Assembly: GCA_050179755.1 (NCBI GenBank)
Contig: JBFXEV010000001.1
Location: 553,994-617,993 of the forward strand
Direction of reading: 5' to 3'
DNA from: Candidatus Babeliales bacterium
GTDB taxonomy: Bacteria; Babelota; Babeliae; Babelales; JBFXEV01
DNA length: 64,000 nucleotides
The notes beneath the pieces are model-generated. The model was not told the DNA's origin. It ran no database searches and saw only the letters and a program-made list of their open reading frames with translations. Positions 1-62,853 of this stretch are shown here, in pieces. A program made the translations under genes and the position numbers. Within the stretch, counting starts at the first letter, position 1. The number at the start of each line of letters is the position of its first letter.

Positions 1-629
1 ACAACTTCTTGAGTTGCAATGTCAATGATAACACCGTGGTTATTCCCTCTTTTTCCTGCAAGATAACGGCCATCTGTTGAGCACTGGGCACCACTGATGT
101 TGCTTGCAATTTCTCTGGAGAGCTTGTCGTTTTGCAAAAATATATTTTTAAGGTGAGATGCTACGCGTGTTGCTGCAAGCATAACTTGTGCATAGTGTCT
201 GTCTTGCGCAAGGCCCCATTCTGCACGAAATAACGATGGCTCTTCAACAAGTGTTGCATGCCAATCACTGAGTGCTTGGGGGTTACATAATGATTCTTGT
301 AACAGAAACCCACGTGGATCCTCCTTGCGCTTTGAATTAAGTAATGCAGTAACTTTAAGTGCATGTTGGCGGCGTGTTCTGCCGCTTGCAAGATCAAGCG
401 CTTCAATGGTAGAGTCTGATGCTGCTCGCTGCTCCATGCATTTACGCGCTTGCTCAACGCCTTGCCTGGTAAAAAGAACATCTTTTTGAAGTTGCGTAAT
501 GGTGGGATGCTGGTGAGCATTATGTTGCGCAGTGCGAGGATTGGCCCACGAGAGCGTGAGGTGCTTTTTAACATCCATGCAAAAAAGAACGTTCGTAAAG
601 AAAATGAATATGAAGTATAAGATGAGCAC
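1..629 (-). CDS. Secreted hypothetical protein, possibly WD40/beta-propeller; truncated by the window edge
   Basis: Translated by hand (not in ORF track): GTG at 629, MLILYFIFIFFTNVLFC-MDVKKH..., open to position 1, ending ...STDGRYLAGKRGNNHGVIIDIATQEV, which resembles a WD40 blade. Confidence 0.65.
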   Translation of the reverse strand, partial: MLILYFIFIFFTNVLFCMDVKKHLTLSWANPRTAQHNAHQHPTITQLQKDVLFTRQGVEQARKCMEQRAASDSTIEALDLASGRTRRQHALKVTALLNSKRKEDPRGFLLQESLCNPQALSDWHATLVEEPSLFRAEWGLAQDRHYAQVMLAATRVASHLKNIFLQNDKLSREIASNISGAQCSTDGRYLAGKRGNNHGVIIDIATQEV

Positions 630-748
630 GTAAGGGCCTTTTTTATGAACGCATCATGAACTAATGTTAGTTTAGCAAAGAATGCGATAAGGAGCGAGTG
701 ATCCTTATGGTACATGAATAGTAATGTGTTCTCCGAGTAAAATGTTAT

Positions 749-1576
749 TTATTGATGCTCTTTGATAAAAGTGAGTATATCATTATTGATTGTTTCTGCA
801 TGTGTGGTGAGCATGCCGTGCGGATATCCTTTATATATTTTAAGCGTAGCCTCCTTTAATATTTTTGCCGAAAGTAAGCCTGCGGCCTTTATGGGAACAA
901 TTTGATCATCATCGCCATGCAGTACCAGTGTTGGCACGTTAATTTTTTTAAGATCTTCCGTAAAATCGGTTTCAGAAAATGCTTTAATGCAATCGTAGTG
1001 TGCTTTTGCACCGCCAAGCATTCCTTGCAGCCACCAGTGGTCACGAATACCTTCTGATATTTTTGCACCAGGTCGATTATAGCCATAAAAAGGAAGAGTA
1101 AGATCTTTATAAAATTGAGCGCGGTTTTTTGCAAGTTCTGCGCGTAATTCATCAAACACAGAGAGTGGCGATCCTAGGGGATTTTTTTCTGTTTTGAGCA
1201 TGAGAGGCGGCACGGCGCTTATAAGCACTTCAAGCGCTACGCGATTTTTGCCATGCTGTGCAACATAACGAGCAACTTCACCACCGCCGGGTGAATGGCC
1301 AATGTGAATCGTATTTTTGAGATTAAGTTTTTCAGTGAGTTGCGCCAAGTCATATGCATACGTGTCCATATCGTTGCCTTGCCATGTTTGCGTTGATCTG
1401 CCGTGGCCACGTCTATCATGTGCAATAACGCGATAACCTCTTTCTAAAAAGAATAGCATTTGTGCATCCCAATCGTCAGCGCTTAGGGGCCATCCGTGGC
1501 TAAACACTATGGGTTGGCCTGATCCCCAATCTTTGTAATATATCGTGGTGCCGTCTTGCGTTGCTATTGTTGGCAT
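749..1576 (-). CDS. cpo: Non-heme chloroperoxidase/arylesterase (alpha/beta hydrolase)
   Basis: [21 protein letters not shown], GHSxGG nucleophile elbow, [12 protein letters not shown] motifs. Confidence 0.9.
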
Positions 1577-1651
1577 AACTCGTTCCTTTTTGTATATGTT
1601 TTTTATTTTAGTATAGCAAAGAATAGTCGCTGCAGCGAAAGCACATTCTAA

Positions 1652-59888: not shown

Positions 59889-60020
59889 GTACAAACCTTT
59901 CTACTATATTATTAAACTGTTTTTTCATCAATTTTTATGCTGAAATGTAGTGGTGTTTTCTCTTCTTTGTGTAGAGAGCTTACCAAGATGCTATCTTGAG
60001 TAAGCTCCAGATTTGATGAC

Positions 60021-62234
60021 TTAATTAATATTATCAACAATAAATTCAGAAACCGCCTCGCCAATTAAATAAGCTGCAATTGCTGTATTACCCGCATGAA
60101 TCCAGGGTTTTACATATACGCTGGTATCTGCAACGCGTAGACTGTCTACGCCAAGTACTCTGCATCGCGAATCAAGGACAGTGTTTGGATTCTTTGCTTT
60201 TCCAGTTTGTTTGTCTACTGCGCCCATTTGGCACGTACCGCTTATGTGATGTCCCCACGAGCTCCAATTTTTTATGTATTGTTTAAGTTCATCAACAGTA
60301 GCAGCATTTGGACCGGGAATAATTTCCCATGGCTGGCCAGGAATGCTGTATTTATCTTTGATGAGTGGGTTATTCATCACGTTACGTACCTCTTGAATCA
60401 TAAGAGCAATTCGTTCTATTGCTATTTCATCTTCAAAAAGTTGTTCGTGCAGTATTGGTGAAATTCTTGGATCTTTGCTTGCCAGGCGAACTGTGCCATT
60501 AGCAACGTGTGGTACTAAGTTTACTAGGTTCCAACTAAGAAACGTTCGTGGACTGGAAGTAAACATTGAAAAAAATGTTGCTCCTTGGAGCGGCACTCCT
60601 GTTTGATCAAGCGGATCATCAATATTTGGTATTAGTTGATTTCTTGGGAAATCAAAATAATTGCCTGGATATTGTGGGCCAAACCATGTTTGATCAAAAT
60701 TAAATATAAAGGCATTAAATGGTATTGCTTGGATTTTAGGGAGCGGGAATTGCCCTGTTTGTTCGCCAGCAAAATTATACCATTGGAGCGAGGATGTATT
60801 ATAAGCCAAAGGGTTTTCTGGAAACGCTGCAAGTGATGCAATGCATACAGCAAATATTTCTGGGTTAATTTGTTCTAAATTTGGGTTAAGAGCCAATATA
60901 AAAGCTGCTTGCCAAGCTGGTATAAAAACTAAAGGATTAGTTTCGTAACTTAGATACGCTTCGCAATGGTCTAGCAGATCAGATCCCACGCCTGGTAGAT
61001 TAATTTTGGTTTTTATACCTACATCTTCTAAGTGTTCTTTTGGCCCAATACCAGAGAGCATAAGCAGTTGCGGTGATTGAAGTGCACCACAGCACACGAT
61101 TACCTCTTTTTTGGCAATATAATTGGTGGTGCGGGCAGGTAAAGATTGATCAGTGTTTATTGCAAGGCAATCAGTAGGGTTTGGACAACTTTCAACGGGG
61201 CATATAACTTCAAATGCGGCGCCAGATTGTACTTCTTGCAAATATGCTTTGTCATAAGCTTTAACGCCAACTGCTTTATATTTATTTTGGTTTTTGCAGC
61301 ATGAACGTTTGTTTTCCTTCAAGATAATTTCTGAAACCAAGGTATTAAAAATAACTCTAATATTTCCTGTGTTGGCCATTTCAGGTACTAATAAATCTTG
61401 GTAGCCATAAGATCGATTCCCTGCAGCAGTAATATCTTGATCATTGTTGCCAATACCAACGATTTCTTGAGGATTACAAAAGTTTTCAAGAAAAGGTTTT
61501 TGAACCATAGCAACAACTACATCGGCGATATCTTGTGATAATTCTTCTATTGGCGTATGTTTAATTGATAACCAACCTTCTGTCGAGCAGCCATCACCTG
61601 GTGTTGCATATAGAATCTTTACTATTTTATTATACAAGCGATGTATGTTATCGCCTCTCCAGTAATCATCTTCAACAACTTCGGCAATATTATTATAGAC
61701 TTGTAATGATCCAAGTATATGTACAAAGCCATGCATATTAGATGAGCCACCTGCTCCAAGTCCACGAGGATATGCATAATATATGCCATTTTGATCAGAA
61801 GAAATAAAGTTTGCAAGATTTTGCGTTGCGTTCCAGTTGCCACAATTAGTTGAATTGGGATCTTGGTTAAATCTGTTTCTTTCAAGAACCAAATTTATAG
61901 GAATACGTATGAGATTTTTATCGAATTGAACGCGTGGGTCAGTAGATTGTAAACTGGTATCGGGGCCCGCTTCAAGAACTATTACTGAATAGCCTGCTTG
62001 TGCAAGGCGTGCTGCTACCACTGAACCAGCAGTTCCTGCCCCTACTATTATATAGTCAGCGCTATAATCAAACGATCCATGGCACGAATATTGTTTTTGG
62101 CAGCATGAGGGCAAACTACCTTTTTGGCTGTGGCCGTCTGTTTGTGCGAACGCCATATAAGGCGTAATTATATTGAGTAGTAAACTAAAAAAAATGAATT
62201 GTGCAAACATTTGTTTGCTGTGTGCTTTGTTCAT
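60021..62234 (-). CDS. Secreted GMC oxidoreductase 4
   Basis: [41 protein letters not shown]. Confidence 0.92.
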
Positions 62235-62442
62235 TACAAATCCTTTGCTTGTATTATTAAACTGCTTTTTGTTGGGTTGTTCTAGAGTTAGTTAAGCTGT
62301 TTTGGCGCCTTTCTTTTTAGCAAATTATTCCTAATATTACCTTAGCAGTTATGCTGGAAATTGCAATGCGCTGATTTTTTATTGTCACCTCTTGTGTTGT
62401 TTTGTTGCATTTGGGTACGCTAAAGTTAATAAAGGAGACGAA

Positions 62443-62853
62443 ATGCAAAAAACAATTACGTTGTTTTTGGTGATGTGTGGTCAAATGTATGCAATGGAGA
62501 AAGAACAAACTCAACAACGAATCTCAATAATGGTAGCCGCCTGGGTGGTAACGCCCGACACACCGCTTAATGAAAAAAGTGAATTTCGTTTATTTCAGTT
62601 CCCCAATGGTTCACGCAAAATTACTTATACGTCCAGGCCTCAAGGGATTTTTGAAAAGCCGTGTGATGTAAAAACAGTATTAGAATTGCCTGCATCAAGT
62701 GTGATCGACATACCCATTCATTTACATAGCTGTACAAAAGACTATTTAAAGCTAAGTGCACCACAAGACGTTCATTGGTATAAAAGTTCTATCGTAACTC
62801 ATGGTGCAGCAGTATTGAGTACGATTCTTGTTATGGCTGCACTTTTTCATTAG
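62443..62853 (+). CDS. Secreted hypothetical protein with C-terminal hydrophobic segment
   Basis: AAGGAG RBS before MQKTITL; signal peptide ending MYA-ME. Confidence 0.7.
   Translation: MQKTITLFLVMCGQMYAMEKEQTQQRISIMVAAWVVTPDTPLNEKSEFRLFQFPNGSRKITYTSRPQGIFEKPCDVKTVLELPASSVIDIPIHLHSCTKDYLKLSAPQDVHWYKSSIVTHGAAVLSTILVMAALFH

Follow-up and report, generated by a model that had tools for sequence, protein, structure and literature searches.

We analysed a 64,000-nucleotide stretch of a Dependentiae (Babeliales) assembly, hereafter called the window, which covers positions 553994-617993 of a single 1,525,295-bp contig (genome G000, 39% GC). An earlier note on this stretch had pointed out about 14 window proteins, unrelated orphans and ankyrin proteins, in which a methionine stands directly after an N-terminal signal peptide (leader). 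We confirmed that this Met-after-leader pattern is real and far above chance, and that it extends well beyond the window. The cut that removes the leader would thus leave a mature protein that begins with Met, most often followed by Asp or Glu, and we tentatively propose that this reflects a selected rule for the first residue of a class of secreted proteins.

The genome was assigned from its relatives. Rho encoded in the window is 70-72% identical to that of 'Candidatus Dependentiae' metagenome-assembled genomes (MAGs) and at most 64% identical to the other matches listed, and one order holds all 60 other Dependentiae genomes sampled. Genes of G000 (n = 1421) were called with a simple codon-usage caller, the longest open reading frame (ORF) being taken to define the start. 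Leaders were recognized by an 8-residue window in the N-terminus with a mean Kyte-Doolittle value of at least 1.9 and no Asp, Glu, Lys, or Arg. This hydrophobic-core screen was passed by 738-739 genes, among which are membrane proteins and some false positives from the cytosol. All cleavage sites were predicted by our own -3/-1-type rules on these gene calls, not by SignalP. The Met class was defined as a Sec-type leader followed by Ala, Gly, Ser, or Cys and then Met, and comprises 214 proteins in a strict set and 260 in a wider set, which correspond to ~15-18% of the genes.

Excess of methionine after predicted leaders

When no cleavage site was assumed, the frequency of Met peaked at 6.5-9.8% at 13-16 positions past the start of the hydrophobic core and was 1.2-2.0% farther on. 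The note had supposed that Met at +1 exceeds its background, and the genome-wide comparison bore this out: Met made up 312 of 4434 residues (7.0%) 12-17 positions past the core start, compared with 441 of 26560 (1.7%) at positions 24-59 (odds ratio (OR) 4.5, p 8e-76). In 149 of 699 leaders, Met stood just ahead of the first charge past the core, compared with a background of 1.4-2.5% in protein bodies; this was so in 65 of 175 leaders when the charged residue was Asp and in 51 of 194 when it was Glu. We also used a site picker that scored only -3, -1, and downstream hydrophobicity. Of the 509 non-membrane leaders, 124 had Met at +1 of the picked site, and Leu came second with 41. In 93 further proteins the site selected by this picker, which is agnostic to +1, lay 1-5 residues before a Met. 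Within the context [AGSC]-X-[DEQN], X was Met in 158 of 441 cases.

The flanks of these Mets were aligned to describe the putative site. Among 356 Mets at leader distance, -1 was Ala in 37%, Gly in 11%, Ser in 10%, Cys in 8%, and Thr in 5%, together 71%. The -3 position was occupied by Leu (20%), Ala (17%), Val (10%), Thr (10%), Ser (9%), and Ile (8%), and -2 was bulky (Tyr, His, or Phe). Ser, Pro, and Asn were found at -6 to -4, preceded by a core rich in Leu, Ile, Phe, and Cys. In the strict set, -1 was Ala in 112 of 214 proteins and the median leader length was 21 aa, while some Met-class members had poor -1 residues (Pro, Asn, Val). Lys or Asn stood at position 2 in 48% of the leader proteins. 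The -3/-1 pattern thus fits signal peptidase I (SPase I) and is in phase with the Met; the hydrophobic core of a Sec/SPase I leader is given by construction of the screen. Other processing types did not fit. The +1 residue is Met and not the lipobox Cys of signal peptidase II substrates, and although Cys occurs at -1 in 26 of 214 proteins, the preceding Phe, Trp, and His form no lipobox. In type IV prepilins the hydrophobic segment would not lie before the cut; here it precedes the Met and a polar stretch rich in Pro, Gln, and Ser follows. Gln, the hallmark of the Q-rule discussed below, was at +1 in 32 of the 509 predicted sites, compared with 124 for Met.

The residue after the Met is also biased. 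In the strict set, +2 was Asp in 63 and Glu in 55 proteins (118 of 214), followed in frequency by Gln and Lys, and in the wider set it was Asp in 71, Glu in 60, Lys in 23, Gln in 22, and Asn in 12 of 260. Asp and Glu together account for 50% of the residues after this Met, in comparison with 6% at position 2 of ordinary starts and 24 of 315 at +1 of other leaders. Two further ideas on this position were dropped. Small residues are depleted after the Met (29 of 260), which resembles a rule for retention of Met, but this may follow from the preference for Asp and Glu and is not claimed. A GCN-ATG-G context that would mimic a Kozak sequence was rejected as Ala, Gly, and Val are rare after the Met.

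Translation of the leader

A Met at this place could also mark a start of translation. A Shine-Dalgarno (SD)-like tetramer was found upstream of 169 of 260 starts of the Met-class leaders and 142 of 285 non-leader genes, but upstream of only 16 of 260 internal ATGs, which equals the background of Mets in protein bodies (621 of 7475). The context of the internal ATG is rich in U and C, unlike that of real starts. If the position served as a start, GTG and TTG should be frequent there; at the Met position GTG made up 4 of 20 Val codons and TTG 6 of 28 Leu codons, in comparison with 29% and 18% in protein bodies. A -10-like box (TANNNT) preceded 31 of 260 internal ATGs and 918 of 7476 body Mets. 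Since the SD, codon, and box counts as well as the abundance of Asp and Glu codons all point in one direction, the leaders are translated and the internal ATG is unmarked as a second start.

Conservation of the methionine

The Met was followed in a second genome of the same genus (G001), of which 600 kb were called alike to give 340 reciprocal-best pairs with G000. Among 45 Met-class proteins of G000 with a leader-bearing orthologue in G001, the Met column was identical in 33, and 37 of the orthologues were themselves of the Met class. Other Mets in the same proteins were conserved in 62 of 218 cases (Fisher p 3e-8) and all residues in 40%, and the columns flanking the Met were identical in only 6-21 of the 45 pairs, most of which are only 24-60% identical overall. 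The few losses of Met mostly concerned doubtful members, namely a membrane protein and conserved housekeeping proteins. Judged from these pairs, the Met is under purifying selection.

One family behaved differently. The peptidase S41 at 11808, which carries AFG-MF (the hyphen marks the predicted cut throughout), was considered as a conserved Met-class member and rejected, since the Met is absent from its 72%-identical orthologue of the same genus and from five more distant homologues, all of which bear leaders. On this alignment the leader is ancestral in the S41 family and the Met a late, unconserved change, and the peptidase is probably an incidental member of the class.

Proteins that carry the methionine

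To define which proteins carry the Met, we took 400 kb of G000 as a sample and compared with Pfam (E <= 1e-5) all its cleavable-leader proteins that lay inside one locus. The Met class in this sample (n = 50) contained 32 proteins without a Pfam match, 5 ankyrin-repeat (ANK) proteins, and 7 WD40 proteins, the rest being one each of LRR, TPR, Macro, GT47, DUF6624, and peptidase M15. The other leader proteins (n = 106) contained 48 without a family, 8 ANK, 3 WD40, 1 RING, and 46 members of enzyme or envelope families such as thioredoxins, NamZ, TamB, MlaD, FKBP, M23, an ABC binding protein, and many glycosyltransferases; the 106 also include some cytosolic enzymes, few in number, to which a leader was falsely assigned. 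Orphans and eukaryote-like repeat proteins thus made up 46 of 50 in the Met class and 60 of 106 among other leaders (Fisher p 6e-6), as the note had expected for orphan and ankyrin-type proteins relative to envelope proteins. Some of the WD40 proteins counted as lacking the Met are variants with Met-Asp or Met-Glu after a non-small residue. Reciprocal-best leader pairs across families comprised 70 in which neither partner had the Met and 2 in which both had it. On the basis of these classes, the Met marks fast-evolving, effector-like secreted proteins, and conserved envelope proteins are without it.

Five tandem WD40 paralogues at G000:C1:403832-412712 (-) share a near-identical leader ending in SSAFG-M(D/E). 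In one relative, g0_631, the sequence directly behind the Met may resemble the start of Skp1/BTB-type proteins.

Distribution across genomes

The same pipeline was applied to samples of 88-600 kb per genome. These samples are partial, related genomes are not independent, and family labels are anonymous. Enrichment of Met was strong (OR 3.2-4.5) in G000, G001, G019, G016, and G011, which represent four families. In G001, of the same genus, and in G019, G016, and G011, of three other families, the OR was 3.2-4.2 and the motif [AGSC]M[DEQN] was present in 13-28% of leaders. A weaker or partial signal was obtained from G065 (88 kb; OR 3.7, motif in 2 of 29 leaders) and G060 (OR 2.0, 3 of 106). No enrichment was seen in the samples of G004, G061, and G064 (OR 1.0-1.4, motif in 0-3% of leaders), three AT-rich Dependentiae in which 27-47% of the called genes have a leader-type N-terminus. 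Two genomes of other phyla also gave no enrichment (OR 1.0-1.4): the motif was found in 0 of 45 leaders of Halothiobacillus and 0 of 31 of a Bacteriovoracaceae MAG, and Met directly preceded the first charge after the core in 0 of 44 and 1 of 30 leaders, respectively. These controls agree with the suggestion that the pattern is specific to a lineage. Identity of PolA to that of G000, a rough proxy of relatedness, was 83, 61, 60, and 57% in genomes with the pattern, 55 and 52% in those with a weak signal, and 56, 48, and 48% in those without. This distribution fits one origin of the Met rule in a sub-clade of Dependentiae.

Proposed role of a methionine-first N-terminus

The translated leader, the Met in phase with the predicted cut, the selection on it, the class bias, and the clade restriction together point to a rule at the protein level for the mature N-terminus. 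We favour, tentatively and with a little less than even confidence, a selected, clade-specific first-residue rule whose product would serve as a tag for protection or mimicry in the host cytoplasm. According to this proposal, translation would start at the upstream SD-led start codon and Sec would export the pre-protein, after which LepB would cut behind [A/V/L]-x-[A/G/S/C] with Met as the first residue after the cut (P1'). The mature protein would then begin with Met-Asp or Met-Glu, less often with Met-Gln, Met-Lys, or Met-Asn, and a sub-group of Dependentiae would maintain this N-terminus by selection on secreted proteins that are orphans or contain ANK, WD40, LRR, or TPR repeats. Once inside the host cell, an unacetylated N-terminal Met with a polar residue behind it would escape the cytoplasmic N-degron classes and would also resemble the untrimmed initiator Met of eukaryotic proteins. 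The protective role may be likened to that of pyroglutamate on SPase I substrates of Bacteroidetes under the Q-rule.

The N-degrons described in PMC11735805 comprise basic and bulky hydrophobic residues, Asp, Glu, Asn, Gln, and Cys after conversion, and, in a further pathway, unacetylated Gly, Ala, Ser, Thr, and Cys. The same paper supports the note's statement that Met-Asp, Met-Glu, and Met-Asn are of the substrate class of the acetyltransferase NatB, and Met-Asp/Glu/Asn/Gln was found at 165 of the 260 sites. The presumed destination of such proteins is taken from published accounts of relatives, in which signal peptides are reported on 79 of 126 ankyrin proteins of Babela and on 78% of those of Chromulinavorax, which were presumed to be host-bound, as well as on 44% of the coding sequences of Chromulinavorax (PMC4378268, PMC6561590). 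The main texts of PMC4378268, PMC6561590, and PMC4776705 do not contain the word 'methionine', and no published description of a Met-first rule was found in a search of largely open-access literature.

Several points weigh against protection in the host as the role of the Met. As NatB is described as co-translational and ribosome-bound in eukaryotes (PMC11735805), literal acetylation by NatB of bacterial products translated from SD-led starts is doubtful, and the N-degron pathways in that paper are those of yeast and mammals rather than of these protist hosts. Delivery to the host cytoplasm is assumed from the Dependentiae literature (PMC4378268, PMC6561590), and all sites are rule-based predictions. 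Ala, Ser, or Val would likewise avoid the classical Arg/N-degron, so that the choice of Met is not uniquely explained, and the depletion of small residues after it may simply follow the preference for Asp and Glu. The class bias is also incomplete: in the sample, the leaders of 8 ANK and 3 WD40 proteins are ordinary ones, and the Met class includes some enzymes, few in number (Macro, GT47, M15). Finally, G061, G064, and G004 are rich in leader proteins yet lack the rule, and thus it is not needed for the lifestyle. The function of the rule, whether stability in the host cytosol or onward sorting, is inferred only. A bolder formulation, which we hold possible with somewhat less confidence than the first, is a two-residue 'address label': cleavage would expose Met-Asp or Met-Glu on ~200 effector-like proteins per genome, to be read by the host or by a bacterial step of export or modification.

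Alternative explanations

The exposed N-terminus may instead be a sorting signal, the Met-acid end of which would be read during subsequent export by type II secretion, by vesicles, or through a host-derived membrane. The facts that support protection in the host support sorting equally, namely a selected motif of fixed position that is limited to one secreted class. Residues after the lipidated Cys direct sorting of lipoproteins in Bacteroidetes and Escherichia coli, and the N-terminus exposed by PEXEL cleavage in Plasmodium is a further precedent. Dependentiae are reported to possess a type II secretion system with two copies of GspD (PMC4776705). On the other hand, no co-varying receptor or machinery was found, the single lead tried, a GNAT acetyltransferase, being confounded by phylogeny, and lineages without the rule are also rich in leader proteins. 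Type II secretion is not known to use linear N-terminal signals. We consider this explanation rather unlikely; as a role for the Met, sorting beyond the periplasm would seem nearly as plausible as stability in the host.

It is improbable that the rule is imposed by an enzyme. In that case Met at P1' would be favoured or even demanded by the signal peptidase of the clade, or by an enzyme of the periplasm that acts on N-terminal Met to modify it, and the class bias would be secondary. The Q-rule offers a precedent, in that its P1' residue is tied to a modifying enzyme (PMC5837995, PMC10653852), and G000 has both two LepB paralogues and several leader-bearing GNAT acetyltransferases. The LepB genes (G000:C1:1044143-1045009 (+) and 1506717-1507577 (-)) encode close paralogues; on inspection by eye, each shows the Ser and Lys box motifs, with SM..TM and GDNR..DSR. 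However, LepB copy number (one, two, or more) occurs both with and without the rule, and at P1' the conserved envelope proteins of these cells have residues other than Met, which indicates a peptidase that does not need Met. A dedicated second signal peptidase was rejected as a candidate on the copy numbers, and an apparent division of LepB into two types proved to be a split alignment of the hidden Markov model. Many Dependentiae have at least two LepB matches.

The GNAT at L159:17525-18136 was also rejected as a co-varying modifier. Its homologues are graded by relatedness rather than present or absent: the bit scores with this query were 264 in G001, 135 in G011, 108 in G016, 97 in G065, 94 in G019, and 70 and 69 in G060 and G064, and G004 and G061 were unmatched with this query. 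As the scores fall with relatedness, they provide no evidence for co-variation. Five leader-bearing GNATs are encoded in 464 kb, at 35751-37097 (+) of the window, L159:17525-18136, L161:15642-16163, L167:18478-19101, and L170:1974-2663. The window copy also contains an M78 (IrrE-like) peptidase domain as a fusion partner. Export is unusual for acetyltransferases.

The Met could further be a relic, if genes whose original start was this Met had acquired their leaders through 5' extension, leaving a fossil codon without function. Gain of leaders seems common in Dependentiae, as many glycosyltransferases bear a leader or anchor, but these glycosyltransferases belong to the non-Met class. Conservation of the Met in orthologues beyond that of other Mets argues against a neutral fossil, as do the excess of Asp and Glu over position 2 of real starts and the S41 family, where the leader is ancestral and the Met late. 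Among 168 paralogue matches classed as having no leader, no protein without a signal peptide was seen that starts at the aligned Met; the ones examined proved to be leader proteins whose ORFs had been called too long. A relic is therefore highly improbable.

The dual translation starts put forward in the note, by which the internal ATG would be a second initiation site that yields a cytoplasmic isoform, would account for conservation of the ATG, and Met-Asp and Met-Glu N-termini do retain their Met. This idea did not survive the counts given above: the internal ATGs have no more SD-like motifs than any body Met, no excess of GTG, TTG, or -10-like boxes, and they are followed by GAN codons, unlike real starts. 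Nor is it apparent what purpose a cytoplasmic counterpart would serve for each of these proteins (over 200, of the ANK, WD40, or orphan type), and we give dual starts very little credence. Least probable is an artefact of the method, in which no cut occurs before the Met and a Met-acid dipeptide lies in the c-region of the leader or in the mature protein for another reason: the sites are rule-based, some members have a poor -1 residue, and the agnostic picker at times cut slightly upstream, but the -3/-2/-1 logo is classical for SPase I and in phase with the Met, which is also X in 158 of 441 [AGSC]-X-[DEQN] contexts.

N-termini and other genes in the window

The N-termini from which the pattern was recognized are listed in Table 1. 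Thirteen of the fourteen read as the note had written them, with leaders of 17-27 aa, and the exception is the protein with ISA-MD, for which the ATG at 30967 is out of frame. The frame led by this ATG (MQKLIFVMSF; 30951-30967, -) enters the leader of the ISA-MD gene one frame off, so that the gene either has a frameshift in the leader or begins at the TTG. No insertion or deletion at 30951-30967 was found in contigs from three runs of one study, which is possibly the source of this DNA itself. The protein at 4754 has a weak -3/-1 site (Thr at both positions) and a further hydrophobic stretch beyond the Met. For the orphan at 62443, the orthologue of the same genus reads MYG-ME, and a homologue search with the orphan matched only the protein itself. 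The window proteins that had been named as lacking the Met, namely the four GMC oxidoreductases and those at 13451, 14318, 35751, and 37201, do read so.

Table 1. Predicted leader-Met junctions in the window. Positions run from the leader to the Met codon and are numbered on the forward strand.
Junction	Leader and Met	Strand	Met codon	Start noted	Protein
LFC-MD	576..629	-	576-578	GTG 629	679 aa; gene runs past the left end of the window
TKT-MD	4692..4754	-	4692-4694		Orphan
VSA-MR	5709..5762	+	5760-5762		Orphan
MQP-MD	7576..7644	+	7642-7644		Orphan; Pro at -1, a poor SPase I site
MRS-MD	9304..9387	+	9385-9387	TTG	Orphan
AFG-MF	11808..11873	+	11871-11873		Peptidase S41
TIA-MN	29511..29585	-	29511-29513		Orphan
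AYA-MD	30303..30368	-	30303-30305		Orphan
ISA-MD	30898..30951	-	30898-30900	TTG 30951	Short leader; ORF 30685..30951
VNA-MD	31499..31567	-	31499-31501		Orphan
VNA-MY	41086..41148	-	41086-41088		Weak ankyrin matches
ICA-MR	46621..46686	-	46621-46623		Orphan
IYA-MD	49109..49174	-	49109-49111		601-aa ankyrin-repeat protein
MYA-ME	62443..62496	+	62494-62496		Orphan

The 53 Pfam-annotated ORFs of the window include genes for housekeeping proteins (P-type ATPase, SmpB, TsaD, Rho, SecF, L27, ThyX, PolA, PriA, Ddl), which alternate with orphans, ankyrin proteins, glycan enzymes, and the GMC oxidoreductases. The latter are four tandem paralogues of 737-908 aa at 51631-62234 (-), each with a long leader (MKKQYGKRMFAQLIFYSLLLN...ALA-RTD or AFA-QTD) and no Met. 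The longest ORFs of PolA (37586-40441, -) and PriA (41111-43141, +) have leader-like hydrophobic extensions of ~25-45 aa. PolA homologues of other families align from residue 45-50 and those of the same genus from residue 11, and the extensions may be genuine or may reflect starts that were called too far upstream. A 789-aa protein (19665-22034, -) combines a leader-like N-terminus with a C-terminal bacterial EndoU nuclease domain (E 1e-14). Glycosyltransferases with a leader or anchor and a DXD sugar-binding region are encoded at 23019-23987 (-) of the window and at L166:1109-2050, L166:9186-10292, and L168:6483-7412; two of them show a short match to the TcdA/TcdB-type catalytic domain, and all are among the many glycan enzymes here that bear an N-terminal signal. 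A 746-aa ORF (49300-51540, +) contains two complete tandem D-Ala-D-Ala ligase modules, as judged from two N-domain and two C-domain matches.

Significance and comparison with known systems

Dependentiae are widespread and almost uncultured parasites of protists, in which about half of the proteins have export signals. If the proposed rule is true, sequence data would suffice to catalogue the effector repertoire of such uncultured parasites, much as PEXEL made possible in Plasmodium, since a selected rule that separates ~200 fast-evolving, eukaryote-like proteins per genome from the envelope proteome would act as an effector predictor. It would also be the second case, after the Q-rule of Bacteroidetes, of a lineage that rewrites the first residue of its secreted proteins. 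In practice, gene finders and signal-peptide predictors that were trained on other phyla can be led astray by an in-frame ATG so close behind the leader.

The closest parallel is the Q-rule. In most SPase I substrates of Bacteroidetes, Gln at P1' is reported to be cyclised to pyroglutamate, which raises extracytoplasmic stability (PMC5837995, PMC10653852). The words 'Methionine' and 'TM6' are absent from the main text of PMC5837995. Both rules concern a lineage-specific preferred first mature residue after an ordinary Sec/SPase I leader, both were found statistically from predicted sites, and for both a protection of the N-terminus is proposed. They differ in that the present rule uses Met and an acidic residue instead of Gln, concerns a fast-evolving, effector-like subset instead of most substrates, and is confined to part of a phylum. 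In addition, we know of no modifying enzyme for the Met rule, and a glutaminyl cyclase as in the Q-rule would have no bearing on an N-terminal Met.

The leaders themselves resemble classical Sec/SPase I signals in their n-region with Lys or Asn, hydrophobic core, small -1 residue, Ala, Val, or Leu at -3, and SD-led start, whereas Met at +1 is rare elsewhere, as in the two control genomes. The 165 sites with Met-Asp/Glu/Asn/Gln resemble NatB-type N-termini, although NatB, as described, works on nascent chains at the eukaryotic ribosome and these proteins are made in the bacterium. In the PEXEL system of Plasmodium, plasmepsin V is described to cut so that a new N-terminus xE/Q/D is exposed and N-acetylated. 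In both cases an intracellular parasite would mark proteins bound for its host by processing that uncovers a short N-terminus, whose second residue is acidic or an amide. PEXEL, however, is eukaryotic, lies downstream of the signal peptide, and relies on a dedicated aspartic protease, whereas in Dependentiae the cut by the signal peptidase itself would expose the tag, and thus the likeness is one of analogy only.

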